DNA from: a virus
Lineage: Duplodnaviria > Heunggongvirae > Uroviricota > Caudoviricetes
Reading direction: 5' to 3' (one strand)
Length of the DNA: 36,404 nt
IMG/VR virus record: IMGVR_UViG_2850756110_000006
Made by a program: the position numbers and the translations under genes. The notes below the pieces were generated by a model. That model ran no database searches, was not told the origin of the DNA, and saw only the letters and a list, made by a program, of their open reading frames with translations. This document shows, piece after piece, positions 5,686 through 32,514 of the stretch; position 1 is the stretch's first letter, and every line of letters starts with the position of its first letter.

Positions 5686-6876
5686 TTAATTGCTGTTAAC
5701 CGAGGTGACCAGATTTGCCAGGTATTTATCGGTGATACGCTGGCGCAGGGTCAGGTTTTCAAGAGGAGGCACCGGGGTATAGTCGTAGTCGATATACAGT
5801 TTTCCGGCCTTGAGGGTTTCCGCATCGTTGGATTCTTCGCTAAACCAGCAGGTCGCATCCACGATATAGCCGTTTGTTTTCAGCTCACGGAATTTGGCAT
5901 TGATGCCGTCAACGATGTCACGAATCAGCGTTGCGGTGATGGGCTTGTCCACCGCCCACATGTGCGCCTCAGCCATCGTGTCGGCCAGTACCTGTGCGGT
6001 GCGGGTGTAGTTTTCAAAGAGGAACAGCGGGTCATCAGAGCAGGTACGGTTACCCCAGAAGCGGAAACCGTCACGGCGAATCAGTGTTGTGACGCCTGAC
6101 TCGTTAAGCAGGTCAGCATCGGTGCCGGACTCCTGCAAATCCCAGAATACAGATGCGCTGATGCCGGTAACACCGTTCACCCCGACGTTGGACAGCGTTT
6201 TATGCCAGCCCTGCTCCTGGTCGATTTTGGCACGCAGACCCAGCGCACGGGCGGTAGCATACGCGGTGGCGGTGGTACTGGTGACCGTATCCCATGCGAG
6301 GAAATCCGGCCAGATGACCATCAGCTCACGCTGGCTGAAATTCTGGCGGTAAGCTTTCACCTCGGAAATGGTTTTACAGCCCCATGCGCTGATATACCCG
6401 AAAGCGCGCAACTTCTGACAGACTGATGCCAGTGCAACAGCCACCTCTTTGGTATCCAGTCCCGGTACGCCGAGAATACGCGGTTTAACACCGGTTACCG
6501 ACTCCGCCGCCAGCAGGGCTTTCAGTCCGGTGTACTGACCGTTTTCGTCGGTGGTGCCGATGATATTGGAAACGGTCTGCGCGAGTTTCGTTTCTTCGTC
6601 GTCGCCGGTGCCGTCTTCCACGCGCACAACAACGGTGACCGGTTTTGACTGGTCAGCGATGGCCTGCAACGATGCCGCCAGCGTGCCTTTTTTACCGGCC
6701 TTTGCAATTGCGCTCTGCACATTGGTAATCAGCACCGGTTTATTGAGGGGGAAGGTTTCCGCATCCGCATCGCTGGCCGTGCAGACCATGCCGACAATGG
6801 CGGTGGATACGGTTGAAATGACGCGGGTGCCGTCGTTAATCTCCAGCACCTGCACGCCGTGATGATAGTCACTCAT
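5686..6876 (-). CDS. FI: Tail sheath protein FI (396 aa)
   Basis: Matches P2 gpFI in sequence and length. Confidence 0.95.
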   Translation of the reverse strand: MSDYHHGVQVLEINDGTRVISTVSTAIVGMVCTASDADAETFPLNKPVLITNVQSAIAKAGKKGTLAASLQAIADQSKPVTVVVRVEDGTGDDEETKLAQTVSNIIGTTDENGQYTGLKALLAAESVTGVKPRILGVPGLDTKEVAVALASVCQKLRAFGYISAWGCKTISEVKAYRQNFSQRELMVIWPDFLAWDTVTSTTATAYATARALGLRAKIDQEQGWHKTLSNVGVNGVTGISASVFWDLQESGTDADLLNESGVTTLIRRDGFRFWGNRTCSDDPLFLFENYTRTAQVLADTMAEAHMWAVDKPITATLIRDIVDGINAKFRELKTNGYIVDATCWFSEESNDAETLKAGKLYIDYDYTPVPPLENLTLRQRITDKYLANLVTSVNSN

Positions 6877-6986
6877 CCGTTTAACTCCGTGGTTAATGGG
6901 TGCAACTATTTTCTGTTGTACAGAGCATGAGACGCTATTTGATCTGTCTGGTCAGTGGATGAAACAACAGATACAGAAAAGGCGGG
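6877..6986 (-). promoter_or_regulatory. Presumed late promoter region for the FI-FII-E-T-U-D operon (P_F), now abutting the IS2 end
   Basis: Position upstream of FI as in P2; no convincing Ogr-site consensus could be verified by eye. Confidence 0.3.
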
Positions 6987-6997
6987 TGGATTTGCCC

Positions 6998-7903
6998 CTA
7001 TATTTCCAGACATCTGTTATCACTTAACCCATTACAAGCCCGCTGCCGCAGATATTCCCGTGGCGAGCGATAACCCAGCGCACTATGCGGATGCCATTCG
7101 TTATAATGCTCGAACGCCTCTGCAAGGTTCTTTGCTGCCGTTAACCCGTCTGGTTTGGGCATGATACTGATGTAGTCACGCTTTATCGTTTTCACGAAGC
7201 TCTCTGCTATTCCGTTACTCTCCGGACTCCGCACCGCCGTGTTCTTCGGTTCAAGTCCCAACATCCGGGCGAACTGGCGTGTTTCATTAGCCCGGTAGCA
7301 TGAACCATTATCCGTCAGCCACTCCACTGGAGACGACGGAAGATCGTTGCCGAAGCGGCGTTCCACCGCTCCCAGCATGACGTCCTGTACTGTTTCACTG
7401 TTGAAGCCGCCGGTAGTCACCGCCCAGTGCAGTGCCTCACGATCACAGCAGTCCAGCGCGAACGTGACACGCAGTCTCTCTCCGTTATCACAGCAGAACT
7501 CGAACCCGTCAGAGCACCATCGCTGATTGCTTTCTTTCACGGCCACTCTGCCTGTATGTGCCCGTTTCGATGGCGGTACAGCAGGTTTTCGCTCAAGCAA
7601 CAGCGCATTCTGGCGCATGATCCGGTAAACACGTTTGGCATTGATCGCAGGCATACCATCAAGTTCTGCCTGTCTGCGAAGCAGCGCCCATACCCGACGA
7701 TAACCATACGTGGGCAGCTCTCCGATAACATGGTGTATACGGAGAAGCACATCCGTATCATCAGTGTGACGACTGCGGCGGCCATCCATCCAGTCATCGG
7801 TTCGTCTGAGAATGACGTGCAACTGCGCACGCGACACCCGGAGACAACGGCTGACTAAGCTTACTCCCCATCCCCGGGCAATAAGGGCGCGTGCGCTATC
7901 CAC
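6998..7903 (-). CDS. insD: IS2 transposase OrfB (InsD, 301 aa)
   Basis: [34 protein letters not shown]... matches IS2 InsD; integrase-like core. Confidence 0.9.
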
Positions 7904-8226
7904 TTTTTTGCCCGTCCATATTCAACGGCTTCTTTGAGGAGTTCATTTTCCATCGTTTTCTTGCCGAGCAGGCGCTGGAGTTCTTTAATCTGCTTCATGG
8001 CGGCAGCAAGTTCAGAGGCAGGAACAACCTGTTCTCCGGCGGCCACAGCAGTAAGACTTCCTTCCTGGTATTGCTTACGCCAGAGAAATAACTGGCTGGC
8101 TGCTACACCATGTTGCCGGGCAACGAGGGAGACCGTCATCCCCGGTTCAAAGCTCTGCTGAACAATTGCGATCTTTTCCTGTGTGGTACGCCGTCTGCGT
8201 TTCTCCGGCCCTAAGACATCAATCAT
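7861..8226 (-). CDS. insC: IS2 OrfA (InsC, 121 aa); an A6G slippery site at + coordinates 7904-7910 would fuse it to InsD
   Basis: [41 protein letters not shown]... matches IS2 InsC; CAAAAAAG on the minus strand just upstream of the insD ATG. Confidence 0.9.
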
Positions 8227-8399
8227 CTGTACTCCAATGACTAGTCTAAAAACTAGTATTAAGACTATCACTTATTTAAGTGATACTGGTTGTCTGGAGA
8301 TTCAGGGGGCCAGTCTAACGGGCAATTCGCCCGCCTGTCCTAGTTTGTACTCACTCATTTTCCGACTGACAATTTACATAGCCAAAACGCTATCAAATC

Positions 8400-8433
8400 T
8401 GACAGTCTGCTTTGAGCGAAAAGCAGACTGTCA
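8400..8433. repeat. Perfect palindrome (14-bp stem, 6-nt loop), motif copy A of a three-member family
   Basis: TGACAGTCTGCTTT-GAGCGA-AAAGCAGACTGTCA read directly; no adjacent T-run. Confidence 0.7.
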
Positions 8434-8548
8434 CGCGTTGAAGTTAATTGTATTACTTAGATAAACACTATCATTTTCCTGACGTTAAGTTGTATCTTTG
8501 ATAGGATTAAAAAACGTATAGATAGCTTATGCTACTGAGGGAATAAAA

Positions 8549-9358
8549 ATGACGAAAATTAGTGAACGATGGAAGCACAATGGCATTACTGAAGGTTATT
8601 GCAATATTTGTGGGAAATATGGCTTGCTCACAAAAGATCATGTTCCTCCAAAGTGCGCCATAACCTTAGGCCCTGTTTTGCAGAAAACAGTTAGCGAATT
8701 TTTTGGTATTCAGGAACCAGTTAAACCATTAAATGCTAAAAATGGCTCTTATTTCAGAACCATTTGCAGCCACTGTAACAATAAGGTATTAGGTGGGCTC
8801 GATGTTGCAATTGAAAATGTAACAAAGTCCTTTAAAGAACAGTTAAGTCGATATATGAATGGTATGAATGTATATCCATTCATTAGAATACCTTTTGATA
8901 GCATATCTTTCACTAAGGCTATGATTGGGCACGTGCTATCAGCAACTTCAGTTGAAGATTGTAAAAAAGAACCCGTAGATAGCCCCTTCTATACACCTTT
9001 AAAGGATTATGTTTTGGGTAAAAATTCAAGTTTTGAGGAAACTCATGATATTTACTACTGGTTTTACCCACACAGAATGCACATATCCGCTCAAAGTGTA
9101 GCATTTATGAACGAAGGACATGTGGCATTTATTTGTGCTTTACATTTTTTTCCTATCGGTTTTATTATCACAATGAAAAATGAAGGAACATACCCTGCCC
9201 ACTCTACAAAATTAGAACTTGAAGATAAATTCCTTACATTTAATATGACCTCTATAAATTATGAGTATACGACATTTCCATTTGTAAATCTTAAGGGAAA
9301 CCAAATGTATGCGATAAGCAACGGTCATACTTGTGTGAGTTATCCAATAATTAAGTGA
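8549..9358 (+). CDS. AT-rich accessory protein (269 aa) with N-terminal HNH/His-Me-finger-like motif (CxxC...DHVPP...CSHCNNK) and an unrecognised C-terminal domain
   Basis: Intact ORF with GAGGGA SD 7 nt before the ATG; C18-x2-C21, D30-H31, C-x2-C-N-N-K spacing resembles HNH nucleases; base composition far more AT-rich than flanking phage genes. Confidence 0.75.
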   Translation: MTKISERWKHNGITEGYCNICGKYGLLTKDHVPPKCAITLGPVLQKTVSEFFGIQEPVKPLNAKNGSYFRTICSHCNNKVLGGLDVAIENVTKSFKEQLSRYMNGMNVYPFIRIPFDSISFTKAMIGHVLSATSVEDCKKEPVDSPFYTPLKDYVLGKNSSFEETHDIYYWFYPHRMHISAQSVAFMNEGHVAFICALHFFPIGFIITMKNEGTYPAHSTKLELEDKFLTFNMTSINYEYTTFPFVNLKGNQMYAISNGHTCVSYPIIK

Positions 9359-9412
9359 CGGCTAAATCATACAATCTACGCATGTTCACTTTCTACATAT
9401 ACCATCTATAAT

Positions 9413-9437
9413 GTCCGCTGTTGGCACAAAGCAGACG
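9413..9437. repeat. Imperfect palindrome, motif copy B, between the convergent 269-aa and 425-aa genes
   Basis: GTCCGCTGTT-GGCAC-AAAGCAGACG, related to copies A and C. Confidence 0.55.
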
Positions 9438-9498
9438 CCCACTCTCACGCGAATGCTTTGCCCTTGACTTGCCAACAACCGTATCGCTTGCTCCGCAA

Positions 9499-10776
9499 CT
9501 ATGGTTTTTTATTAGAATCTTCGCCACTAAATAAATTATAATAAATTGATTTTATTAGATATCTGTCAGAATCTATATGGTCAGCACGAGTAGCATGCTC
9601 TAATGTTTCAAATGCTAGGGTTTGTGCGGCTTCAGCAAAAATTCCAGGCCAACCCTTACTCAGCATCGACAGTCCTTTAAGGACCCTTATCTGAATTTCC
9701 CTCATACTGGCACCATCGCGCGCAACAGGTGAGAAAAAGTCTTCAAGTAGATCGTTATTCTGAAGTGGTGCAACATGTACAGAAGGATATTTCACTTCTA
9801 TTTCATCAGATTTATTCTGCGCGTAAGCGGAAAGTATACGTACACCTCTGCCAATGACATCAATGGCGGTTCCAGGATCGTTCACTGCGGGGGAAAGGGC
9901 TCGGCAGGCTATTTCGGCCATGACGCTAAGACAAAATCGGGGGTCCTGAGCAAATGAACGTACATCCGAGACAATAATCGTCTCAAGTAAATCGGTGCTG
10001 ATTGATGACTCCTGGCCCTGACTCAGGTACAAAACTGGCGTGGACGGATGTATGAAACTGCCCGGCTGCGCCACGAGGTATACATGACGGGGATCATTGG
10101 TCAGCAGCTTGCTGAGTTTCACCATATCAACATATTCAACATAGCCAATCTTTTTCGGATAAACTGCAACCGTTCCTTTCGGCTGTTCATTGTTCTCAAG
10201 CCATGGATATCCGCCGAGACAGGGATTTCTTGCTCTCGCAATAAATGTTTCGATGGCCGCCTGTTCTACTTTTGCCGTTGTCTCACCAACCCTCCCCAGA
10301 GAGGTCAAATGCTGTATCCAGCGAAGCAATGTGATGAGGATTAAGGCAATGACAACCAGTGTTACAATGAATAAAATGACTCTCCCCCTTTCTCCATAAG
10401 CTCCCATATTGAGGGCAATAATCCCTACCAGACTGAAGAGAAAAGAACCGATGAAGGTGGCCAGTACATTTTGTGTGGTGACGTCTTCAACAACTAAACG
10501 AGTAGCTCTGGGAGTCACATTAGTAGTGGCTGAACCGTAGGCTGTGACCATGATGCTCAGCGAAAATGTGGTCACTGCCAGCATACTCGATGCCAGTATG
10601 TTCAGAATGTTATCGACTGCTTCCGCACCAACCTTCACGGAAACCGACTCAGGTATCATTGATTTAAAAAGAATTGATAAAAGGGCCGTTATTATTGCGA
10701 CAATTGCGAATAACGTTGCCCTGAACCATAGTTTTTTAAATGTCTGCTTCAGCATCCATTTCCAGCGTGAAATCAT
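9499..10776 (-). CDS. Membrane protein of unknown function (about 425 aa): four predicted N-terminal TM helices plus a roughly 270-aa soluble C-terminal domain; possibly DUF2254-like
   Basis: Intact ORF; start chosen at the second ATG (10776), which has a GAGGGA SD, the track start at 10791 does not; hydrophobic segments ATLFAIVAIITALLSILF, ILASSMLAVTTFSLSIMV, VLATFIGSFLFSLVGIIAL, VILFIVTLVVIALILITLL; family assignment from memory only. Confidence 0.7.
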   Translation of the reverse strand: MISRWKWMLKQTFKKLWFRATLFAIVAIITALLSILFKSMIPESVSVKVGAEAVDNILNILASSMLAVTTFSLSIMVTAYGSATTNVTPRATRLVVEDVTTQNVLATFIGSFLFSLVGIIALNMGAYGERGRVILFIVTLVVIALILITLLRWIQHLTSLGRVGETTAKVEQAAIETFIARARNPCLGGYPWLENNEQPKGTVAVYPKKIGYVEYVDMVKLSKLLTNDPRHVYLVAQPGSFIHPSTPVLYLSQGQESSISTDLLETIIVSDVRSFAQDPRFCLSVMAEIACRALSPAVNDPGTAIDVIGRGVRILSAYAQNKSDEIEVKYPSVHVAPLQNNDLLEDFFSPVARDGASMREIQIRVLKGLSMLSKGWPGIFAEAAQTLAFETLEHATRADHIDSDRYLIKSIYYNLFSGEDSNKKP

Positions 10777-10839
10777 TCTGCATTCCCTCATATTGCAGCC
10801 GGGATAAATAAATGCCGCCTCTGTGGCGGCATGTTGCTG

Positions 10840-12840
10840 TTAACGAACCAGATGCAGGAAGTGCAGGTGTTTTTCGTACTGGTCCAGTATGTCATTAATC
10901 AGCTGTTCCTGATTCCAGCCCATTACATCATAATTTTGGCCGCCCTCTTTGAGATAGACTTCAGCGCGATAATATCGATGTTGTTCACTCTGCTGCTCAT
11001 CATTATCCAGCGCAGCGAGCGCGAAGGTCGGTGAGTTATACCCGCGAAGCCTCACTTCATATATATAATTCAGCTCGTTGCCCAAATCGACTTCAAGGCG
11101 AATACGATCCTCGGCGGCGTCACTGATGTGGCTTATCGTTCCCTGCTTGTTAAGTTCCTCCTGAACCAGCGTCATGGCGGGTTGGATAATGTCGTCCATA
11201 AAACGTTTCACAAGAGAGCGCTTCGGCAAATACGCGATATTGCGTAACCTTCTCTGCCAGGGAATTGGGTTACGTGCAGCCGTAGGAGCAATAGTCGCCA
11301 TGCTAAGGCTTTCACGCTTGGTCAAATCCCGACGCAGGGCTTTTAACAGTCCGTATATGGATATTAATAAGATAACTGAGAAGGGCAATGCACTCGCTAT
11401 CGTTACGGTTTGCAACGCACTCAGCCCCCTGCGATCAGCAGGGCAATAGCAACAACGCCCATGAGCAATGCCCAGAAAATTCGCTGCCAGACGGGCGTGT
11501 TTGCCACCCCACCTGATGCCAGAGTATCCACAACCATTGCCCCGAATCAGCAGACGTTACAAAGAAGACGATGACCATCGCCATTGCAATGAATGACAGC
11601 ACGGAAGAGAACGGGAAATGCTCCAGGAAATTAAACAGGGCAAGCGCAACATCCTGCTGAACGGTATTGGCGAGGTCAGTGGCGCCCTGGTTCATGATGA
11701 GATAGATGGCGCTGTTTCCAAACACCGTCATCCACATGAGCGTAAAGCCGGCGGGAACAAACAACACGCCAGTCACGAACTCACGAATTGTCCTGCCGCG
11801 GGAAACGCGTGCAATGAACATACCTACAAACGGCGACCATGAAAGCCACCATCCCCAGTATAATAATGTCCAGCCCCCAGCCAGTTGCTCGACTTGGGTT
11901 CATACGCGTAAAGGTTGAACGTTTTACTCACCAGTTCCGACAGATAACCACCCGTATTTTCCACAAATGACTTCAGCAGAAGCACAGTGGGACCCAGGCA
12001 CAAGACCAGCGCCAGGAGCAACACCGCCAGGCCCAGATTAAGCTCAGACAGGATGCGTATTCCCTTGTCCAGGCCGGACACCACCGAAATCGTCGCTAAC
12101 CCCGTGATGACCACGATCAAAATGACCTGTACCGTTTCATTGATGGGCACGCCGAAAAGATGGTTCAAACCGGCATTCACCTGCAATACACCGTAACCCA
12201 GCGATGTTGCAACGCCAAAGACAGTGCCTATCACGGCGAAGATATCAACCGCGTGGCCTATAGGCCCGTAAATGCGATCGCCGATAATGGGATAGAGCGC
12301 AGAACGCAGCGTTAAAGGCAGACCGTGACGGTAACTGAAAAAGGCCAGAATCAGCGCCACGATGGCATAAATTGCCCATGCGTGCAGACCCCAGTGGAAG
12401 AACGTCAGGCGCATGGCTTCCTTCGCTGCCGCAACGGTCTCTGGAGTGCCGACAGGTGGCGAAAGATAATGCATCACAGGTTCGGCAACGCCAAAGAACA
12501 TCAGGCCGATCCCCATCCCTGCCGAAAAAAGCATCGCGAACCAGGAGTGGTAGCTGAAATCAGGCTGCGCATGGTCTGGGCCCAGCTTTATATCACCGTA
12601 ACGTGAGAGTCCAAGGAACGTGACGCTCAGTAAAATCAGGGCCACAGCAAGTATGTAGAACCAGCTGGCATTCGTGAAGATTTGTTGCTGAAGTAGTTTA
12701 AAATTTTTGTCGGCGACATCCGGGAATACGGCGGCAAAGGCGACAAGAAGGAAAATTAGCAAAGCAGATGTAAAGAATACCGCTTTGTTAACCTGGCTTG
12801 TAGACTTCTTTGGGGTTGTATCATTTTCACTCATAATCAT
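10840..12840 (-). pseudogene. BCCT-family (BetT-like) betaine/choline transporter gene broken by at least three frameshifts
   Basis: Fragments 11824-12840, 11435-11821 and 10840-11415 carry consecutive BCCT segments, including [32 protein letters not shown] recovered only by switching frame near 11880; further shifts near 11510 and 11425. Confidence 0.8.
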
Positions 12841-13082
12841 TTATTCCATTAATTAAATCCGCACTGGATAGAAGGTACTACCTCTCACAGAGTAGCAAAG
12901 TTCAACTGGCTATGCGGGATTAATCGGAATGCATGGTGGAATGAGTGCCGATACAAATCATCCTATATTCTAAGGAGTTTTAAGTTACTCAGCCTGCCAA
13001 TTACTGGGGCATTTAATTTGTATGATCTGTATCAAAGCTGGGATATAAGTTAAGTGAAGTATATTAGGCACGAATTACCAGC

Positions 13083-13112
13083 GTCTGCTCTTGGCACAGA
13101 GCGGACTGTCAG
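13083..13112. repeat. Imperfect palindrome, motif copy C, between the transporter pseudogene and G
   Basis: GTCTGCTCT-TGGCAC-AGAGCGGACTGTCAG, related to copies A and B. Confidence 0.55.
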
Positions 13113-13155
13113 ATTAGACTTTACTCTGTGCTATAGGTATGTCAGCTCATACAAC

Positions 13156-13683
13156 TTATTGCGGCATTTCCGGCCATTCAGGATTTGCAGGATCCACACG
13201 ACTGACCAGAACGCTGTAGCGTTCCCATGCTTCCAGTCGGCTGCGCTCCTCATCTGTTGCCATATTCAGCCTGACAGCGCGCTCCAGCGGCAAAATCACG
13301 GATTCAGCTTCGGAAAGTAAAGTTGCCTTTTGTGATTCTGCCAGTTGCTGCTGTTCGTCTGCCGTATAAATCCGCTTAATCACGGCACCATCCTTAAACA
13401 TCCATTTACCTGAGTCATCAGCACGTCGGTTGGCGGTAATATCAGGAACCTCGACAACGCTAAAACCTTCAGGGTTAAGCGTTGAAGCATCTCTGGTGAT
13501 GCCGACAATTATATTATTCTCGTCGTAAACAATCTTTATCGTGTCTTCCTGAAAATTACTTACTTCCTCATACCAGTTTTTTCCGTCTTCAGACCATAAC
13601 CAGATAACATCAAAATTTTTTGTCAGTTGATATTGGGCAACAGTTTTGGGATTACCCGCAGTAATATTTTTTAAATGCTGCAT
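13156..13683 (-). CDS. G: Tail fibre assembly protein G (175 aa)
   Basis: Matches P2 gpG in length and sequence. Confidence 0.9.
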
Positions 13684-17223: not shown

Positions 17224-17571
17224 TCAACTCACAGGGATGGTTAACGAAAGTGGCTGGCCGGTGTCGTTGTGCTGACCGGTTAACGTGACCGTCATTCGCC
17301 CGTCAAAACTGCGCGCCGTGGTGACGGATGACAGGGTGACGCGGGGTTCCCATTTCAGCACTGCCATGTAACAGGCGACCTTAATCTGCAACTCAAGCGC
17401 CGGGGTCTGCGGCTGGTCAATCATTGATGCCAGCAACGAGCCGTAATCACGACGCATCACCCGTGAGCCGACCGGTGTGCGCAGGATATCGCCGATACTC
17501 TGGCTGATATGCTCAAGGTCAGTGACCGTCAGGCCATCACTGCGATTCATTCCGAGATAACGCGCTGTCAT
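17224..17571 (-). CDS. W: Baseplate protein W (115 aa)
   Basis: Matches P2 gpW. Confidence 0.95.
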   Translation of the reverse strand: MTARYLGMNRSDGLTVTDLEHISQSIGDILRTPVGSRVMRRDYGSLLASMIDQPQTPALELQIKVACYMAVLKWEPRVTLSSVTTARSFDGRMTVTLTGQHNDTGQPLSLTIPVS

Positions 17572-18197
17572 AGAGGACTCCCGGTTGTGCCGCCGCTGTC
17601 GCCGGGGTGTTTATGGGTATGCAGTACCTTCCCGTTTGATGAAAGTTCACCGCCGGTGTGTTCAATGTTGCCGCGCATCGTCCCGCCCTTCTGCACTTCC
17701 AGCGTGCCGGTAATCAGCTTGTTGGTGCAGACCACCTCCGGTGTGTCCAGGGTGACGCGGGTTGATGCTTTCACCATGACCACCGGCACCGTGGCAGTAA
17801 CAGAATCAGAAGCCGTCACGCTGGCCGTTTTAATTCCGCTTACCGTGAGTGCACTGGTTTCAGGTTCATACTCAATCACCGCCCCGTCAGGGAAACGGAT
17901 ATGCAGGGCATCCGCCGACGCCGACGGCGCGGGGTTATCGCCGGAATAAATCCCCGGCAGAACGAACGCCGTGTCGAGTTCACCGCCCACGGCCAGAATC
18001 AGCACCTGTTCCCCCACGGAAGGTGCCCACCATGTGCGCGAACGACCGGCGCGATGGGTCAGCCACTGAAGCCAGTCGGTGCACATGCCGCCGGTCTGCA
18101 CACGGCAGCGACCGGCATTAAGGTCGGTTTCGACGATAATGCCAGTGCGAATCATATTGCGTATAAAGCGAAGAATTTCATTGTATTGTGCATTCAT
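17568..18197 (-). CDS. V: Baseplate spike protein V (about 210 aa); N-terminal ~15 residues differ from P2
   Basis: From ...RNMIRTGIIVETDLNAGRCRVQTGG onward matches P2 gpV; ATG at 18197, the track ORF starts at an upstream TTG. Confidence 0.9.
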   Translation of the reverse strand: MNAQYNEILRFIRNMIRTGIIVETDLNAGRCRVQTGGMCTDWLQWLTHRAGRSRTWWAPSVGEQVLILAVGGELDTAFVLPGIYSGDNPAPSASADALHIRFPDGAVIEYEPETSALTVSGIKTASVTASDSVTATVPVVMVKASTRVTLDTPEVVCTNKLITGTLEVQKGGTMRGNIEHTGGELSSNGKVLHTHKHPGDSGGTTGSPL

Positions 18198-18283
18198 TCG
18201 ATAATAATGATTCTGTACAATCTCGAAGTAAATCACACCACGATTTCTGGTGCACAGAACAACAAGGGACAACAAAATCCATT

Positions 18284-18949
18284 ATGAGTACTTACTTTTT
18301 CTCGTCAGAAACAATGAAAGAATTGTTCAAAGATTATCTGGTCTTTTTGAACACGCTGACTCCCGGCACAAACTTTGAATCAAGCAGAAACAAAATAATT
18401 GCTCAAGCAATAAACTTCATTTCCGAAAACCCTGAAGATTGGGACAAAAAATCCCAGTACAACATTGCTATGATTGGCGACACCTTTAAAAGTTTCTTAA
18501 GAGAAAAGGGAGAAGATAACAACAGCATCAACCTTATATTCACTTGCTTTTTTAGATTTATCATTGAACCAAGCATTCTCTCTCCGGAAATAGAGTCTCA
18601 CTTTTCACCACTAAGAACCATCAAGGATTTTGCTCTGTATAACTATAATGAATTCGATGAGCGGAGCAGAGCACAGATAGACTTTTCTCTTAGAGAACTG
18701 CCATTAGCAATGGTTAAAGAAGTTTTAAGCTCCAGCAATGTTGACACATATAAAAAATACATTGATAGTTTAAACGAAGGGCGTCAATTTTTCGAAAAGT
18801 GCGACTCCTTCTTAAAGGAGCAACATGCCAAAATAGAGTCAATCAAAGAGTCATTAAAAGGGTATGAGGTCGCATTTAATTTTGTTGGATTGTTTGAAGG
18901 CTTTAATTCACTTGGCAAAAAGAAAGTGAAATCATGCTATCAAGAATAA
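18284..18949 (+). CDS. Hypothetical protein (221 aa), first gene of an AT-rich cassette inserted between V and S
   Basis: Intact ORF with AAGGGA SD-like sequence upstream of the ATG at 18284; strongly AT-rich; no recognisable motif; the track start at 18188 lies inside V and is rejected. Confidence 0.65.
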   Translation: MSTYFFSSETMKELFKDYLVFLNTLTPGTNFESSRNKIIAQAINFISENPEDWDKKSQYNIAMIGDTFKSFLREKGEDNNSINLIFTCFFRFIIEPSILSPEIESHFSPLRTIKDFALYNYNEFDERSRAQIDFSLRELPLAMVKEVLSSSNVDTYKKYIDSLNEGRQFFEKCDSFLKEQHAKIESIKESLKGYEVAFNFVGLFEGFNSLGKKKVKSCYQE

Positions 18950-19353
18950 TTCTTATCATCTTGGCTATAATCATTCCCTCCCCGCTGATATACTATGGAA
19001 TGCATAAATTACCAGCTCTCGAAACGACAAATGCTGCCACATATTTTATGTCAGCACTACCTTTTGCATCAGTTACATTGATTTTCATGTATTACTTTAG
19101 AGTTGTACTGCTAAATCATATATCGTTACGAACTCAGATTATGCAAATAGAACTCAGAAAGAGCCTTTGTCAGTTCATTCAGAGTTATAGCGACTATTCC
19201 TCAGAGATAAGGAAAAACAATCCGGAAGCGCTTTCAAAATTCGAAGACGTAGTATTTTCAAACATCATGCTATCCGATGATAAGATACCATCTACATTTG
19301 ATGGCATTGAGCAAATAGCATCGTTAATCAATTCATTAAAAAATGGAAAGTAA
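18934..19353 (+). CDS. Small membrane protein (139 aa, two predicted N-terminal TM helices), overlapping the preceding gene by 16 nt
   Basis: ATG at 18934 overlaps the upstream stop at 18947-18949; hydrophobic MLSRIILIILAIIIPSPLIYYG and YFMSALPFASVTLIFMYYFRVVLL. Confidence 0.65.
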   Translation: MLSRIILIILAIIIPSPLIYYGMHKLPALETTNAATYFMSALPFASVTLIFMYYFRVVLLNHISLRTQIMQIELRKSLCQFIQSYSDYSSEIRKNNPEALSKFEDVVFSNIMLSDDKIPSTFDGIEQIASLINSLKNGK

Positions 19354-19356
19354 TGA

Positions 19357-19384
19357 TAAAAGGCCAATAACTGGCCTTTTATTT
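19357..19384. terminator. Bidirectional rho-independent terminator between the cassette and S
   Basis: AAAAGGCCA-ATAAC-TGGCCTTTT flanked by an A-run on one side and a T-run on the other. Confidence 0.7.
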
Positions 19385-19455
19385 ATTAACATGAAAATTC
19401 AAAATAAATTATGCTAATCAATTGATTTCTATCTTATATTCTCAGATGATTAAAG

Positions 19456-19908
19456 CTAACGATTCAGGTGAGCCAGGATAATCTCTTCAATCATCTGCAC
19501 ATCCTCACCGGTAAAGCCGAGCAGAGGACGCGCCGGATATTCAATTTTCTTACCGTCTTTCCGGGTTTCTTCCGACAGACCGAACTGATGCACACTGGCT
19601 ATTTTCGGTGACTTCCCGCCGTAAAACTCCATTGATGCCTGTTCAGGGCTGGCGCGGATATGCAAAAAACGACTGGTGATAAGTTTCGCAAACATTTTTC
19701 GCTTAACGCGACCGGTCTTTTTTCTGGCGCTCTGCTGCTGGCGTGGTGCGTAGGGTGTGCCGTCCGGGGCTTTCTGTGCCATCACCCGACGCTGCTGACT
19801 CTGACGCAGACGTTTCGCCAGTTCGGCGCTCAGTCGCCGACGCCCTGACGGTGACAGCGACTCAATCAGTCCGGTCAGCCTGTCTTCAAAACGCTTAAAC
19901 TCATTCAT
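19456..19908 (-). CDS. S: Tail completion protein S (150 aa)
   Basis: Matches P2 gpS. Confidence 0.95.
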   Translation of the reverse strand: MNEFKRFEDRLTGLIESLSPSGRRRLSAELAKRLRQSQQRRVMAQKAPDGTPYAPRQQQSARKKTGRVKRKMFAKLITSRFLHIRASPEQASMEFYGGKSPKIASVHQFGLSEETRKDGKKIEYPARPLLGFTGEDVQMIEEIILAHLNR

Positions 19909-20368
19909 CCCACTTACTCACCAGTTCGCCATTGATATAAAGCTCCATCGGGCGGGTGACCGGCTCCGGCGGCGGAGGTTCCGGGATATTCTTCACATGC
20001 AGCGCGCCGTCCACCTCACTGACCAGCGTGCGCTCGGTCAGCATCAGGCTGATGCTGATATCAAAGCTGCTGTCATTGTTGATGTCTGCATAAAACGTGA
20101 AGCCCTTTTTCTGGCCTTCGTCGGTGGTCATGATGTCGGGCTGATTTTCCCGCAGCCACGCCAGCACCGGCACGATGAGCAGGTCAAAATCACCGGTAAA
20201 GTCGGTCACAATGACATTGAGCGTGTAACGCTTTTCGAACGACAGCGACGTCGCCAGTGTGGAGGCAATACTCCCGTTATCCACGAATATCCGCAGCATA
20301 TCGGGGTTAGTTTTCAGCACCGTGACGGCATCAGTCAGCGCCCTGCGCAGGCTGTCGGGTTTGAGCAT
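19901..20368 (-). CDS. R: Tail completion protein R (155 aa)
   Basis: Matches P2 gpR. Confidence 0.95.
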   Translation of the reverse strand: MLKPDSLRRALTDAVTVLKTNPDMLRIFVDNGSIASTLATSLSFEKRYTLNVIVTDFTGDFDLLIVPVLAWLRENQPDIMTTDEGQKKGFTFYADINNDSSFDISISLMLTERTLVSEVDGALHVKNIPEPPPPEPVTRPMELYINGELVSKWDE

Positions 20369-25835: not shown

Positions 25836-27608
25836 ATGACCATCACCACAGACACCACTCTTTTACACGACCCGCGTCGTCAGGCGGCGCTGCTGTACTG
25901 GCAGGGATTTTCCGTGCCGCAGATTGCCGCCATGTTGCAGATGAAACGCCCGACGGTGCAGAGCTGGAAGCAGCGCGACGGCTGGGACAGCGTTGCCCCC
26001 ATCAGCCGTGTCGAAATGAGTCTGGAAGCGCGGCTGACCCAGCTCATCATCAAACCGCAGAAAACCGGCGGTGACTTCAAGGAAATTGACCTGCTCGGAC
26101 GCCAGATTGAACGACTGGCACGGGTCAACCGTTACAGTCAGACCGGCAACGAGGCAGACCTTAATCCGAACGTCGCTAACCGCAACAAAGGCGGGCGTCG
26201 CAAACCGAAAAAGAATTTTTTCAGTGACGAGGCCATCGAAAAGCTGGAGCAGATTTTCTTTGAGCAGTCTTTCGACTATCAGTTGCACTGGTATCGCGCC
26301 GGGCTTGAGCACCGCATCCGCGATATCCTGAAATCCCGCCAGATTGGCGCGACGTTTTATTTTTCCCGCGAGGCGCTGCTGCGCGCCCTGAAAACCGGCC
26401 ATAACCAGATTTTTCTGTCGGCCAGTAAAACGCAGGCGTATGTGTTCCGTGAATACATCATCGCCTTTGCCCGTCTGGTTGACGTTGACCTTACCGGTGA
26501 CCCGATTGTCCTGGGCAATAACGGCGCAAAACTGATTTTTCTCGGCACCAACTCCAACACCGCACAGAGCCATAACGGCGACCTGTACGTCGATGAGATT
26601 TTCTGGATCCCGAATTTTCAGGTACTGCGTAAGGTGGCATCAGGTATGGCCTCACAGAGCCACCTGCGCTCGACCTATTTCTCCACCCCGTCCACGCTGG
26701 CGCACGACGCCTACCCGTTCTGGTCGGGTGAACTGTTCAACCGGGGACGCGCCAGCGCCGCCGAACGCGTGGAAATCGACGTCAGTCATAACGCCCTTGC
26801 CGGAGGTCTTCTCTGTGCGGACGGCCAGTGGCGGCAGATTGTCACCATTGAGGACGCCCTGAAAGGCGGCTGCACGCTGTTCGACATTGAGCAGCTCAAA
26901 CGCGAAAACAGCGCCGACGATTTTAAAAACCTGTTCATGTGTGAATTTGTTGACGACAAGGCATCGGTGTTCCCGTTCGAGGAGCTGCAACGCTGCATGG
27001 TCGACACGCTGGAAGAATGGGAAGACTATGCACCCTTTGCCGCCAATCCGTTCGGCTCCCGCCCGGTATGGATTGGTTACGACCCGTCACACCGTGGCGA
27101 CAGTGCCGGATGCGTGGTGCTGGCACCGCCGGTGGTGGCCGGTGGCAAATTCAGAATACTTGAGCGTCACCAGTGGAAAGGCATGGACTTTGCCACCCAG
27201 GCTGAATCCATCCGCAAACTCACCGAAAAATATAACGTCGAATACATCGGTATTGATGCCACCGGCCTCGGTGTCGGCGTGTTCCAGCTCGTGCGCTCGT
27301 TCTATCCTGCCGCGCGCGATATCCGCTACACACCGGAAATGAAAACCGCAATGGTGCTCAAGGCAAAAGACGTTATCCGCCGTGGCTGTCTGGAATATGA
27401 CGTCAGCGCCACCGACATCACCAGCTCGTTTATGGCTATCCGCAAGACCATGACCAGCAGCGGACGCATCGCCACCTATGAGGCCAGCCGCAGCGAGGAA
27501 GCCAGCCACGCCGACCTCGCCTGGGCGACCATGCACGCCCTGTTAAATGAGCCACTCACCGCCGGTATCAGCACCCCGCTGACATCCACCATTCTGGAGT
27601 TTTACTGA
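25836..27608 (+). CDS. P: Terminase large subunit (ATPase) P (590 aa)
   Basis: MTITTDTTLLHDPRRQAALLYWQGFSVPQIAAML... matches P2 gpP; GGCGAGG SD; stop overlaps the Q start (TGATG). Confidence 0.95.
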   Translation: MTITTDTTLLHDPRRQAALLYWQGFSVPQIAAMLQMKRPTVQSWKQRDGWDSVAPISRVEMSLEARLTQLIIKPQKTGGDFKEIDLLGRQIERLARVNRYSQTGNEADLNPNVANRNKGGRRKPKKNFFSDEAIEKLEQIFFEQSFDYQLHWYRAGLEHRIRDILKSRQIGATFYFSREALLRALKTGHNQIFLSASKTQAYVFREYIIAFARLVDVDLTGDPIVLGNNGAKLIFLGTNSNTAQSHNGDLYVDEIFWIPNFQVLRKVASGMASQSHLRSTYFSTPSTLAHDAYPFWSGELFNRGRASAAERVEIDVSHNALAGGLLCADGQWRQIVTIEDALKGGCTLFDIEQLKRENSADDFKNLFMCEFVDDKASVFPFEELQRCMVDTLEEWEDYAPFAANPFGSRPVWIGYDPSHRGDSAGCVVLAPPVVAGGKFRILERHQWKGMDFATQAESIRKLTEKYNVEYIGIDATGLGVGVFQLVRSFYPAARDIRYTPEMKTAMVLKAKDVIRRGCLEYDVSATDITSSFMAIRKTMTSSGRIATYEASRSEEASHADLAWATMHALLNEPLTAGISTPLTSTILEFY

Positions 27609-28642
27609 TGAGCAAGAAAAAAGGGAAAACACCGCAACCTGCGGCAAAAAAAATGACCGCCAGCGCCCCGAAAATGGAGGCATTCACCTTTGGTGAGCCG
27701 GTGCCGGTACTCGACCGCCGTGACATTCTGGATTACGTCGAGTGCATCAGTAACGGCAGATGGTATGAGCCACCGGTCAGCTTTACCGGTCTGGCAAAAA
27801 GTCTGCGTGCTGCCGTGCATCACAGCTCACCGATTTACGTTAAACGCAATATTCTGGCCTCGACATTTATCCCGCATCCGTGGCTTTCCCAGCAGGATTT
27901 CAGCCGCTTTGTGCTGGATTTTCTGGTGTTCGGTAATGCGTTTCTGGAAAAGCGATACAGCACCACCGGTAAGGTCATCAGACTGGAAACCTCACCGGCA
28001 AAATATACCCGCCGTGGTGTGGAGGAGGATGTTTACTGGTGGGTACCGTCCTTCAACGAGCCGACACCTTTCACGCCCGGCTCCGTATTTCACCTGCTGG
28101 AGCCCGATATTAATCAGGAGCTGTACGGCCTGCCGGAATATCTCAGCGCCCTTAACTCTGCCTGGCTGAATGAATCGGCCACGCTGTTCCGCCGCAAGTA
28201 TTACGAAAACGGCGCACATGCCGGATACATCATGTACGTCACCGATGCCGTGCAGGATCGCAACGATATCGAAATGCTCCGCGAAAACATGGTGAAGTCG
28301 AAAGGCCGCAACAACTTTAAAAACCTGTTTCTCTATGCCCCACAGGGGAAAGCCGACGGCATTAAAATTATCCCGCTCAGTGAAGTGGCAACGAAGGACG
28401 ATTTTTTTAATATCAAAAAAGCCAGCGCCGCTGACCTGCTGGACGCGCACCGCATCCCCTTTCAGTTGATGGGCGGCAAGCCGGAGAACGTCGGGTCGCT
28501 GGGCGATATTGAGAAAGTGGCAAAGGTCTTTGTCCGCAATGAGCTTATCCCGCTACAGGACAGGATCCGCGAGATAAACGGCTGGCTCGGCCAGGAAGTC
28601 ATCCGCTTTAAAAACTACTCACTGGACACTGACAACAGCTGA
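27608..28642 (+). CDS. Q: Portal protein Q (344 aa)
   Basis: Matches P2 gpQ. Confidence 0.95.
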   Translation: MSKKKGKTPQPAAKKMTASAPKMEAFTFGEPVPVLDRRDILDYVECISNGRWYEPPVSFTGLAKSLRAAVHHSSPIYVKRNILASTFIPHPWLSQQDFSRFVLDFLVFGNAFLEKRYSTTGKVIRLETSPAKYTRRGVEEDVYWWVPSFNEPTPFTPGSVFHLLEPDINQELYGLPEYLSALNSAWLNESATLFRRKYYENGAHAGYIMYVTDAVQDRNDIEMLRENMVKSKGRNNFKNLFLYAPQGKADGIKIIPLSEVATKDDFFNIKKASAADLLDAHRIPFQLMGGKPENVGSLGDIEKVAKVFVRNELIPLQDRIREINGWLGQEVIRFKNYSLDTDNS

Positions 28643-29045: not shown

Positions 29046-29974
29046 TCAAACCAGGCTTTTGCCTTGCTTCATTTTTTTAGATGAGTCTAAAAATTTGAAA
29101 TTATCATTAGATGAAAATATTCTTTCTGCGGTATGCCGAATGACTGAAGTATTGAAGACCGCAGCCTGCTCCTCATTACAACTGAATACACCCTCATGAC
29201 CATCAAACTCGCCCGCCAAAAGAAGGTTTTTTGATACTGGGAACAAAACTAAAGTGTCTTTTACACCAAACCCGGGGAATAAGGGCCTCGTGCTAATTCA
29301 GGATTAGTCCACATTAAGCAAACTGGGTTATCTGAAGTTATAAATGACCCTTGCCCATCAGATATGGTCATAAGTGACCAGTTGCGTTGATGCAACAACT
29401 TGGTGATAACAGGTACACATTTCATTTCCATATCTATCATGAACTCTCTGATTACATTGATTTCGAAATTATCCCCATCCACAAAATTTTTAATTTTTTC
29501 GTAAGCGAGATCATATGGCAAAGACTCACCCATTTCTTTCTCATAAGCTAATTTGCAATCGTCCCAACGCTCAGCCGAACTAACTGAGGATTTCATGATA
29601 AACTTTGCTATTTGTTTCAATGGAGATGATAAATGTTCTCGCTGAGCAGGCGTACGTATTGCCAATAAGGAAATAAACTCCAGAATAACATCTTTGGTTT
29701 CGCCTGAAAACTCGCCCCCTCCTCAAGTTTTCTTAAATGAGTAGCGACACTGCCTTCAAACTCTGCAAGAGAACTCTCGAGATAGTTTGGGTCAACTCCA
29801 TCCAATTCTAATCGGTTGAAATCTCTAACCCCCCCCGACATTGCGAGTATTACTCTCAAAGGTTTTGCGCTCCTTTAAATCTATTACAGTTAATTTTGAT
29901 TTTTTCCCCCCATTACTTGTAAACCCTTTCAAATAACATTGGGATAAAAAATGATGATGCCTTGCAACACTCAT
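29046..29974 (-). pseudogene. AT-rich DUF4238-like gene at the tin/old position, split into four frame-shifted fragments
   Basis: N-terminus MSVARHHHFLSQCYLKGFTS resembles the DUF4238 HxxPQFYLKxF motif (from memory); frame breaks at a G8/C8 run (29829-29836), near 29617-29665 and near 29246-29261. Confidence 0.65.
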
Positions 29975-30077
29975 ACTCAGCTCCGTTATGGCTATAATCG
30001 CATAAATAATAAGCACTTATATTGCAATCATCTAGTTAAATACACAATATTTATGACTCCGAAATTTCATTAAATCA

Positions 30078-32249
30078 CTATTGATAGGTTTTACCAATTA
30101 GTGCCAGCTCGAAATGGATGCGTGGAATCTGCGAACGTTCAGCCTTTGTCATCCGCCCTGATGGCGCTATCTGGTACGGTTTTAATGGTTCGCAGTTTCT
30201 TTGTTGCCAATTCGGTCTCGGTGCACCATGTTTTAATGCACTCCTGAGCACCGTCACAACTTCCGGGTCATCCCATCCGATAACACCACTATCAACCAGA
30301 TTTAACACCGCTGCGGCATGCTCAGACGGTGTAGGGTGCATAACCGGAACGTCACCGCCGGTGAACTTTCCACAGTTATTGACAGGACTCCGAGGCGCGG
30401 CGATGCCGCTTTTTAAAGTCAAAGGCTCAACGACCGGCACTTTCGGCACAATGCGCCAGTCCGTCGTTCTGGTGATATGAATATGACGCGCGCCGAGATG
30501 CGGCGCGTAAATGCCGACCACTCTCTCGACTTCTTCCTCGTACTCGTTAACTTCATCCGACGGGCTACGGGCGACCCTGACAGTCTGACAATCGCGCGGG
30601 ACATTTGCCCCACCCTGCGCGCTGATATACAACGCAAAATCACCACTGTCTGCGGCGGCGCGAGCAGCCTCGACGCGCTCGTCAAACTCATCAGCAATGC
30701 TGACGCCGCGCGGCAATTTGCGTAGTTCACGGTAAGCCCCCATTGTCGGCAGACCAACCGTTTTAAATTGTGGGATGCGCCACGTTGACGCCCATGCGGT
30801 AACAGCCGCGGCAGTATCTTTAAGCGGCTTACCGGTATCGTTATCGAGCTGACCATCCAGTGCATAGCCGTCGATATTTTTTGAGATGTATTTCGCGATA
30901 TACCCCGCAGCACCGCCCCGGTTAAGGTGTTTCGCCTGAAAACGGTTTCGCGCAGCTCCTCTTTCGTCGCCATCCTCTTTGAGCGCATAGCGACGCATGA
31001 TTTCGATAATCTGGTTACGCTGGCGCGGATTACAAAAAAGCATCATATGCCAGTGCGGCGTTCCGTCGTGGTGTGGCTCGACGACACGCAAACCGTAGAC
31101 CTGTAAATCATTATCCTTGAATGCCGTGCGCATCAGGCTCCAGATACGGCAGAGATAACGCTGCGCATCCTTTGGATTAAATGCCTCATCGTTCCAGCCG
31201 TGATTTAGCTGGACGGTTTTACTTTCGCCTTTTCTGACCTGACGTGTCGGGTGATACTTTGACGGCGCGGTCAGCGTGATAAACATCCCCACATCACCCT
31301 CTGCTGCGGCGTAACGCTCAATACCGGCAATGGTGTTCATCAGCTCCATCCGGCGAATTTCAGGATTAGAAATACTGCCCATCACCTTACTGATAAGGTC
31401 GATGCGCTCGCCGGTTTCCCTGTTTTCAAGGTCACATGATTTAAGAAATTCCAGATTTGCCTGGCGGCGCGCACGCACATCACGAATGGCATGTTTACTG
31501 GCATAAGGAGAACGGTCTTTATTGACCTCCCCGACAGCTATCAGTAACGCCTCATGCCAGCGCATACGCTGGCCTTTAAGCTGATGAGTCCACCACTCAT
31601 CGTTAAACAGGCGGGCAATGGCAGAATATGCCTGCCTCGTGGTCATCTGTCCTTTACGGTATTTTTTCCAGTAGAGCGGGGAAATATTGAAAGCACGTGC
31701 AGCGCCAGCAACATGACCATAAAGGTGAGCCTGCGCCTCATCCGTAAACAGCGATTCTTTTTCGCCATGTGCATCAACCCAGGCATCGCAGAGTTCCTCA
31801 TACATCATGAAAAGCTGCGATGAGATACGGGCAGCAAACTTTTTCAGCTCCTTGTCATTCATTCCCGGCAGGCGCGCATAGTGGTCACGCTCTGCCAGAA
31901 ACAGCAACGACGCGTCGGTGTTCATTTCATGGCGCTGATTCACACGCTCAATGCGCGGCCATAAACGACGCTGAAAAGTGGATGTGAGGAAATAAAACCC
32001 GTGCACCGGGCTTTTATTGCGCCGGATGTAGTCATAACGTGAAGTAAACAGCGAGCGCAAAAAGTAAGGCAGGCGGTTAATCGTGGATAAAACACCTTGC
32101 ACCTGACGCATCTCGTCACGTGTAAGGGGTCTTTCGCGCCCGACAGCCTCGCGTGGCGCGTTCCATGCATAAGCACCGGTAAACGTCTTACCGGTGCCTG
32201 CGGCAAATGCTGACGGAGGGACAAAACGCCCGGAGGCTTTAACGGCCAT
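30078..32249 (-). CDS. A: Replication initiation protein A (rolling-circle nickase, about 723 aa)
   Basis: MAVKASGRFVPPSAFAAGTGK... matches P2 gpA; HHDGTPHWHMML HUH-like motif and YIAKYISK tyrosines; track ORF starts at an upstream TTG. Confidence 0.9.
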   Translation of the reverse strand: MAVKASGRFVPPSAFAAGTGKTFTGAYAWNAPREAVGRERPLTRDEMRQVQGVLSTINRLPYFLRSLFTSRYDYIRRNKSPVHGFYFLTSTFQRRLWPRIERVNQRHEMNTDASLLFLAERDHYARLPGMNDKELKKFAARISSQLFMMYEELCDAWVDAHGEKESLFTDEAQAHLYGHVAGAARAFNISPLYWKKYRKGQMTTRQAYSAIARLFNDEWWTHQLKGQRMRWHEALLIAVGEVNKDRSPYASKHAIRDVRARRQANLEFLKSCDLENRETGERIDLISKVMGSISNPEIRRMELMNTIAGIERYAAAEGDVGMFITLTAPSKYHPTRQVRKGESKTVQLNHGWNDEAFNPKDAQRYLCRIWSLMRTAFKDNDLQVYGLRVVEPHHDGTPHWHMMLFCNPRQRNQIIEIMRRYALKEDGDERGAARNRFQAKHLNRGGAAGYIAKYISKNIDGYALDGQLDNDTGKPLKDTAAAVTAWASTWRIPQFKTVGLPTMGAYRELRKLPRGVSIADEFDERVEAARAAADSGDFALYISAQGGANVPRDCQTVRVARSPSDEVNEYEEEVERVVGIYAPHLGARHIHITRTTDWRIVPKVPVVEPLTLKSGIAAPRSPVNNCGKFTGGDVPVMHPTPSEHAAAVLNLVDSGVIGWDDPEVVTVLRSALKHGAPRPNWQQRNCEPLKPYQIAPSGRMTKAERSQIPRIHFELALIGKTYQ

Positions 32250-32514
32250 ATGAGCCAAAAGCCTCTGAACAACGCCTGCTGAGTTGCTCAACCTGCGCGT
32301 TTAAATCAGCAAAAGACTTTGCGCTTCCGGTCAGAATATCGTGATGCATCAGGCCGGAAACGAGCTGGCTTAATTTCGGGTAATAACCAACCACCGCCAG
32401 CCATTCCTGACCGGCGTTTTTACCGCTTTCCGCTCTCTTTTTCTCGTGGAGAATAAACTGAAAGCTGTCACTGGTAACGACATAACGTTCGCCAATTTCA
32501 ATACGAATGCTCAT
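32239..32514 (-). CDS. Hypothetical early protein (91 aa, orf83 position)
   Basis: Intact ORF in the A-B interval, coupled to neighbours by overlapping stop/start. Confidence 0.7.
   Translation of the reverse strand: MSIRIEIGERYVVTSDSFQFILHEKKRAESGKNAGQEWLAVVGYYPKLSQLVSGLMHHDILTGSAKSFADLNAQVEQLSRRCSEAFGSYGR

Follow-up and report, generated by a model that had tools for sequence, protein, structure and literature searches.

A cargo gene split by a frameshift at the orf30 site of a P2-like prophage and the membrane protein family to which it belongs

The stretch of DNA analysed here (IMG/VR record IMGVR_UViG_2850756110_000006; 36,404 nucleotides, hereafter the window) represents a P2-like prophage of a type known from Shigella dysenteriae, and it carries an AT-rich cassette inserted between the tail genes V and S. 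A preliminary description, made from the sequence alone, had read this cassette as two translationally coupled plus-strand genes, one for a soluble protein and one for a small membrane protein, and had proposed the pair as a candidate undescribed system, that layout being common among abortive-infection (Abi) and exclusion systems. Sequence comparison shows, however, that the cassette contains a single antisense gene, which encodes a protein of about 357 amino acids (phrog_9373; E. coli WP_000661081.1) and whose frame is broken in the window by the loss of four bases. The best explanation overall, to which we give a probability of roughly 55%, is a single cargo gene at the orf30 site, split by a frameshift, whose intact protein would most likely serve in phage exclusion.

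One gene in two reading frames

Both open reading frames (ORFs) of the preliminary description are present on the plus strand, antisense to V and S, and they overlap by 16 nucleotides. ORF A (18284-18949), the 5' fragment of the broken cargo gene, encodes 221 amino acids from its first ATG and corresponds to residues 1-213 of the family protein. It contains a helical N-domain, a coiled coil and the motif NFVGLxxGFxxLG, followed by eight out-of-frame residues (VKSCYQE) and a stop. ORF B (18934-19353), the 3' fragment, encodes 139 amino acids corresponding to residues 219-357 and contains the first transmembrane helix (TM1), a short variable loop, the second helix (TM2) and a highly conserved C-terminal cytoplasmic domain. 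The two helices that had been announced for the 139-residue product were recovered both by hydropathy and by AlphaFold2 (AF2), TM1 at residues 219-241 of the intact protein (nucleotides 18934-19002) and TM2 at residues 256-278 (nucleotides 19045-19113).

Comparison with the phrog_9373 profile (388 positions) placed ORF A at positions 9-248 (E 1.3e-60) and ORF B at positions 250-387 (E 7.1e-65); together they match the full length of one profile, but across two reading frames. When the island was compared by megablast with 5426 complete E. coli genomes, 60 of them proved to contain it. In the matches listed, the island measures 1285 bp instead of the 1281 bp found here and carries the annotation of a single hypothetical protein. 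The coding sequence (CDS) of E. coli CFSAN051542 and of strain 7/2 is 1044 nucleotides long and encodes 347 amino acids, or 357 when read from an upstream ATG; residue F6 is invariant in 52 homologues, which favours this upstream start, at 18284, over the start called by PGAP. Pairwise alignment showed that the sole difference between the window and CFSAN051542 is the absence of four bases, AAAG, from the window, and the same four bases were the only indel against a further copy (L002). The frameshift site lies at 18919-18926 on the plus strand, where the window has (AAAG)2 and its intact relatives have (AAAG)3; the relatives read GGCAAAAAGAAAGAAAGTG at the break and the window reads GGCAAAAAGAAAGTG.

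An alignment of the 52 homologues showed that conservation is continuous through the break. The motif A-F-N-F-V-G-L-x-x-G-F-x-x-L-G-x-x-K stops a few residues before it, with N199, F200, G206, F207 and K214 invariant. Since a single profile covers both ORFs, the E. coli copies are single CDSs four base pairs longer and conservation is unbroken, ORF A and ORF B are one gene. ORF B starts at an internal in-frame methionine at the beginning of TM1, which accounts for the apparent translational coupling: the 16-nucleotide overlap is the product of a 4-bp deletion within one gene.

Architecture, distribution and possible role of the intact protein

The AF2 model of the full-length protein is all-helical, with a predicted local distance difference test (pLDDT) score of 80. 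The N-domain (residues 1-150) is compact and, when modelled alone, reached a pLDDT of 91.6 and a predicted template modelling score (pTM) of 0.88. It is followed in the model by a long helix (153-197), the juxtamembrane motif, TM1, a short loop and TM2, which runs on into a long conserved helix and then two helices around a conserved KIPSTFDG loop. Mean pairwise identity was 30% for the N-domain, 26% for the coiled coil, 60% for the juxtamembrane motif, 33% for TM1, 10% for the loop, 55% for TM2 and 64% for the C-domain. Lysine and arginine are over-represented on the N-terminal side of TM1 and on the C-terminal side of TM2, a bias that points to an N-in/C-in topology with both large domains in the cytoplasm. 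The periplasmic loop is short and unconserved, and it is longer in two Aeromonas members and in a member from a Pseudomonas metagenome-assembled genome (MAG).

The family is large and widespread. A word-indexed search with the intact protein returned 345 relatives from Escherichia, Citrobacter, Enterobacter, Cronobacter, Pantoea, Erwinia, Yersinia and Pectobacterium, nearly all of 353-358 amino acids, all annotated as hypothetical and none with a Pfam domain. An exhaustive profile search gave 924 clusters at 50% identity, of which 667 reached E <= 1e-30; among the best 150 of the 924, the representatives are almost all of about 355 amino acids and match the whole profile in one stretch. A species-level genome scan yielded 80 loci from Gamma- and Betaproteobacteria, Campylobacterota, relatives of Geobacter, Nitrospirales, Bacteroidota and one Petrotogaceae MAG, with a single ORF in about 74 of the 80.

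No partner gene is conserved across the 80 loci, the largest clusters of neighbours being histidine kinases, ABC transporters, integrases and FadAB. Pfam assignments to 149 immediate neighbours comprised five integrases, five gpV, three gpS, two type I specificity subunits and two IS200 transposases, the rest being housekeeping genes. Neighbour matches to the PADLOC profiles "mad3/mad8" were not counted as defence, their member counts matching those of histidine kinases and SMC-like ATPases, to which they are probable cross-hits; PADLOC otherwise contributed nothing convincing among the neighbours. Only six of the 80 loci lie in P2-like tail contexts (two in Erwinia, one each in Rouxiella and Symbiopectobacterium, and two in Aeromonas). 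Members of the family occur at the S-V site in prophages of Citrobacter, Pantoea, Pectobacterium (beside V, not S), Erwinia, Rouxiella and Aeromonas, and an intact member is present at this site, in the same orientation, in two viable Yersinia phages of the Peduoviridae. One MAG locus lies in a mobile island that also contains resolvases and a putative AbiC (putAbiC).

A distant relative of 388 amino acids (L096, 3572-4738, on Klebsiella pneumoniae pKp_SB62390_2) shares the coiled coil, the TM hairpin and the C-domain, with about 30% identity over residues 137-349. It recurs on about 223 similar Klebsiella replicons of about 110 kb and in four Klebsiella phage records. The gene lies, in antisense, within a group of primase and DnaB-like replication genes on what appear to be phage-plasmids, with a P-loop NTPase fold protein nearby.

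The remote homology and structure checks proposed in the preliminary description returned the phrog_9373 match and an all-helical model, but no relative in the domain, defence or structure libraries. Searches of Pfam and NCBIfam (including SieB, SLATT, Abi_* and RexB) with both fragments, the intact protein and the 52 homologues gave only sub-threshold noise (DUF3810, Mlp). Neither of the two fragments nor the intact protein matched anything in PADLOC-DB 2.0.0 at E <= 0.01-1, these libraries being no newer than 2023. A profile search of the PDB returned nothing, Foldseek found no match among viral structures at E <= 0.001, and structure searches otherwise gave only generic helical matches. A literature search with the identifiers WP_000661081.1 and phrog_9373 found no papers, and none of the libraries searched records a function for the family.

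The gene is solitary, patchily distributed, AT-rich, linked to mobile genetic elements and placed antisense at a prophage cargo site. Together with the joining of a variable N-terminal module to a conserved one that comprises the membrane segment and the C-terminus, this fits a single-protein exclusion or abortive-infection factor. We propose that the intact protein would sit in the inner membrane as an N-in/C-in hairpin, with the fast-evolving helical N-domain as a candidate sensor. The coiled coil and the conserved juxtamembrane motif would connect this domain to the two TM helices and to the conserved cytoplasmic C-domain, a candidate effector or oligomerisation module. As with other cargo carried at P2 hotspots, the benefit of the protein to the lysogen would most likely be the exclusion of other phages. 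The most probable route would be activation in the cytoplasm followed by action at the membrane, which would either be permeabilised (abortive infection) or become closed to incoming DNA. That the intact protein acts in defence or exclusion is plausible at somewhat less than even odds, and the narrower proposal, that the intact family is an undescribed single-protein anti-phage system in which cytoplasmic sensing leads to membrane disruption or an entry block, is tentative. What stands of the earlier proposal of an undescribed system is therefore horizontally acquired cargo at the S-V site and a plausible defence role for one intact protein; the two-gene system does not stand. If the family proved to be anti-phage, it would add one more single-gene membrane system and would establish the S-V site as a defence hotspot, which would be useful and not field-changing.

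Single proteins with two TM helices or other single-protein membrane effectors are known among SLATT-type proteins, RexB, T4 Imm, P22 SieA/SieB and HK97 gp15. These share with the family a hairpin anchor with cytoplasmic domains, carriage by prophages and expression independent of the late genes; the likeness is architectural only, and the Pfam and PADLOC scans gave no sequence or profile match between them and the family. The P2 exclusion genes old, tin and fun(Z), and the defence cargo described at P2 hotspots (PMC9122126, PMC9519451), are likewise accessory AT-rich cargo in variable prophage sites. They occupy other hotspots (A-Q and G-FI), however, and anti-phage activity has been demonstrated there, whereas this family is only a candidate.

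The strongest alternative gives the intact protein a role in lysogenic conversion, as a membrane protein with no part in phage defence (acting, for example, in stress tolerance, toxin immunity or envelope modification), or has it exclude only P2-like relatives, at the step of DNA entry and without abortive infection. We regard this as rather unlikely. It agrees with the 74 of 80 loci that lie outside P2 tail contexts, mostly among housekeeping genes, and with the absence of homology to defence families, and an inner-membrane location would suit a block of DNA entry. The tiny periplasmic loop (10% identity) and the large conserved cytoplasmic domains, on the other hand, fit intracellular sensing better than interference at the surface or in the periplasm. 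The patchy distribution linked to mobile elements (the P2 hotspot, the Klebsiella replicons, the integrase neighbours and the putAbiC island) also speaks against it, as does the presence of a candidate defence gene in an alternative cassette at the S-V site.

Several observations weigh against the explanation that we prefer, that of an exclusion factor whose gene is now split. Nothing in Pfam, NCBIfam, PADLOC or the PDB bears on its function, and a crude test of neighbours in the 80 genomes showed no clear enrichment of defence islands, the neighbours being mostly housekeeping genes, with two type I restriction-modification specificity subunits and five integrases. ORF B retains the whole module of TM helices and C-domain behind an overlapping start, and the split copy could keep some activity. 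A -1 slip of the ribosome at C_AAA_AAG, finally, would rebuild the full protein.

State of the window allele

The exact ORF A protein is present in public collections under Shigella dysenteriae names (VDG93574.1, WP_284521010.1). The same protein is encoded by 14 contigs that come from independent samples; among these are the 4.68-Mb chromosome CP026834.1 and contigs of two unrelated Logan read sets, ERR212313 and SRR5024194. The recurrence of the broken allele on these contigs from independent Shigella samples identifies it as a mutation of a lineage and not an assembly error. The same 90% cluster (P0123-P0131) contains at least three further independent truncations in S. dysenteriae, S. boydii and E. 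coli, with alleles that end after R137, after K188 or at ...AFNFG. This recurrent loss may reflect the general decay of Shigella genomes or a fitness cost, and if the family is a single-protein anti-phage system the repeated truncations in Shigella and E. coli might reflect its cost. A pseudogene-rich pattern is expected in Shigella. Other accessory genes of the prophage are also broken, so that the window copy is most likely a pseudogene, an inactive cargo gene, and decay is the simplest reading. The proper object for a test is the intact allele (WP_000661081.1, from E. coli CFSAN051542 or S10) and not the window copy.

A different view of the break is that it is a regulated switch, by phase variation of the AAAG tract or by programmed -1 frameshifting at C_AAA_AAG, with full-length protein still made at a low or switchable level. 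The deletion does fall in a tetranucleotide repeat, and C_AAA_AAG (18916-18922) is a partly slippery site that overlaps the AAAG tract. A simulated -1 slip on AAA-AAG (18917-18922) restored the frame and gave the intact protein minus one lysine. This view is nevertheless improbable. Three repeat units are too few for efficient slipped-strand switching, and three AAAG units are present in all listed E. coli copies, with no variation in length. The tract is not kept in homologues, which read GKKKANE, SKQKKRD and similar, and the first base of the heptamer is C and not A. No stimulatory hairpin was found downstream (dG -4.7 for the free energy of folding), no Shine-Dalgarno-like element is evident upstream, and unrelated mutations break other Shigella alleles. 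We thus did not class the locus as phase-variable or as a programmed frameshift, the tract being unconserved, its copy number constant among the listed E. coli genomes and the downstream structure absent. Without a stimulatory structure or a conserved tract, the -1 slip would be expected to yield a trace of product at most. That the Shigella allele still delivers activity, through the split halves or through this slip, would be a bolder addition to the proposal of a single-protein anti-phage system.

A true two-gene, translationally coupled operon of a soluble sensor and a small membrane effector, as the preliminary description had it, is very improbable. The overlap of the ORFs, the position of the ORF B ATG exactly at the start of TM1 and the persistence of the split allele in a Shigella lineage are in its favour. 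Against these stand the single PHROG profile that spans both ORFs and the listed E. coli copies, all 4 bp longer and single CDSs. The family is moreover a single polypeptide of about 355 amino acids in the 924 clusters and in about 74 of 80 genomes, and no good Shine-Dalgarno sequence could be read before ORF B. A co-conserved pair of separate genes, Abi-like or toxin-antitoxin-like, was also considered and rejected: a single ORF was present in 60 of 60 E. coli copies and in about 74 of 80 loci in other species, with no conserved neighbour. What appeared to be an operon for a sensor and a membrane effector is a frameshifted single gene, and the argument for an Abi system from the layout of a soluble protein beside a small membrane protein does not apply.

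An artefact of sequencing or assembly, with the gene intact in the real genome, has as little to recommend it. An indel in a short repeat is an error-prone context, but the identical truncated protein occurs on the 14 contigs from independent samples and sources, and a whole 4-bp unit was lost and not a homopolymer base.

The cassette and the variable site between S and V

Comparison of positions 17400-20000 with P2 and many Peduovirus genomes showed 96-97% identity in the flanks only (W/V and S/R), while the middle part was found in none of 101 matching phage records. The island (about 18159-19452) has 35% G+C against 58%; in detail, G+C content is 0.32-0.37 over 18150-19500 and 0.55-0.63 on either side, as expected from the AT-rich insertion first described. 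The cassette, of about 1.3 kb, has one boundary within the 5' end of V and the other shortly beyond the stop codon of S, and it includes its own terminator; the alternative cassettes at this site have the same boundaries.

Gene V, for the baseplate spike, occupies 17568-18197 on the minus strand and encodes 209 amino acids (ORF list); PGAP calls an identical 630-nucleotide CDS in E. coli CFSAN051542. Its first 13 or so codons (about 18159-18197) are part of the swapped cassette, the alignment with P2 diverging from about 18160. The replacement of the N-terminus of V noted earlier is thus borne out: it reads MNAQYNEILRFIRNMIR in the window and MNTLANIQELARALRNMIR in P2 (translated from the P2 row of the alignment), in proteins of 209 and 211 amino acids, respectively. 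A similar variant of the V N-terminus can be read from Citrobacter DNA at the equivalent of 18159-18283. According to the P2 annotation and the alignment, the divergent intergenic region (18198-18283) takes the place of the P2 region that carries the pV promoter and activator site on the minus strand. Since the cassette has its own V N-terminus and its own pV promoter and activator region, its exchange recombines inside an essential tail gene and swaps a late promoter. The same intergenic region presumably holds the plus-strand promoter of the cargo gene. A weak TTCATT-17-TACAAT match can be read at 18193-18221, and a consensus promoter scan upstream of the cargo gene found no strong sigma-70 site and nothing convincing.

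On the right, the bidirectional terminator of the preliminary description was recovered by a terminator scan and folding as an intrinsic hairpin at 19356-19382 (dG -16.2 kcal/mol, z -4.8), with an A-run upstream and a T-run downstream. On the plus strand it closes the cargo gene, and on the minus strand the late operon whose last gene is S. The annotation of P2 likewise places a terminator at the corresponding position, and every alternative cassette at the S-V site brings its own hairpin. Homology to P2 returns at about 19452, and gene S (tail completion; 19456-19908, minus strand, from the ORF list and the annotations of CFSAN051542 and P2) forms the right flank.

In P2 the corresponding place is occupied by orf30 (NP_046770.1), a nonessential gene of 786 nucleotides and 261 codons in the same antisense (plus) orientation, with a terminator after it and the pV start and activator site before V. 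It shares with the gene in the window the V-S slot, the orientation, the terminator common to the late operon ending in S and the character of AT-rich, horizontally acquired cargo. The two proteins show no detectable similarity, however (best BLASTP E 1.5; 261 against 357 amino acids); orf30 has no Pfam or PADLOC match and nothing links it functionally to the family. The statement that P2 has only a small orf30 at this place was not upheld. It matches the wording of the R18C paper (PMC6823313), which terms P2 ORF30 "short, 261-bp-long", whereas RefSeq NC_001895 gives a 786-nucleotide CDS, that is, 261 codons. The phrog_9373 protein of CFSAN051542, by comparison, lies at the same locus and in the same orientation, with the window ORFs as its N- and C-terminal parts, and differs in that its frame is intact.

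The S/V flanks were matched in 1581 of the 5426 E. coli genomes, and this gene was present in 60 of the 1581. An evenly spaced sample of 60 from the 1584 records matching the flanks comprised about 36 empty junctions, about 16 with orf30, three with this gene, one with a RelA_SpoT protein and two with a 246-amino-acid ORF on the minus strand. The survey of variability suggested earlier therefore returned at least five classes of alleles in E. coli, unrelated alternatives lying between conserved flanks, as in a variable-region cassette, a class to which the deviant G+C content of the present island also conforms. The RelA_SpoT allele (L012, 982-2061, E. coli SC455, NZ_LR778146.1) encodes 359 amino acids annotated as "GTP pyrophosphokinase" and matches the PADLOC candidate PDC-S33 (E 1e-16). 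Its resemblance to fused toxSAS/CapRel-type defence proteins suggests that the S-V site can carry defence cargo.

Least probable of all is a conserved morphogenesis or lysis accessory protein of the P2 family, as might be thought of a gene between tail genes and near the lysis cassette: it is AT-rich and antisense to the late operons, absent from P2, confined to 60 of 1581 E. coli genomes with the junction empty in about 36 of 60 sampled records, and most members of its family lie outside phages.

Variability of the orf30 site is already known from the literature. The orf30, TO and Z regions have been recognised as three sites of P2-like phages with horizontally acquired genes (PMC3091744), and another replacement ORF at the orf30 site has been reported (PMC6823313). 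The site is missing from the main surveys of P2 defence hotspots: it goes unmentioned in Rousset 2022 (PMC9122126) and is not treated in PMC9519451 either. A preprint of 2026 does refer to minor defence hotspots "within the late genes".

Two other accessory regions of the prophage were read from the window. The classical old/tin (A-Q) hotspot, at 29046-30016 on the minus strand between Q (27608-28642) and A (30078-32291), holds a DUF4238 (PF14022) gene in at least four consecutive ORF pieces, which looks like a second decayed cargo gene. DUF4238 proteins are reportedly among the P2-hotspot defence genes described by Rousset et al. in 2022. The Z/fun (G-FI) hotspot, between the sheath gene FI (5686-6876) and G (13156-13683), is expanded to about 6.3 kb (6877-13155). 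It contains an insertion sequence (IS) of the IS3 family (orfA 7861-8271, orfB 6998-7903), an unassigned plus-strand ORF of 269 amino acids (8549-9358) and a gene for a DUF2254 membrane protein (9499-10791). An ORF for 191 amino acids, likewise unassigned, is also present there, as is a BCCT transporter gene in two pieces (11824-12840 and 11435-11821). The presence of such chromosomal-type genes in a tail-gene hotspot suggests an IS-mediated rearrangement.

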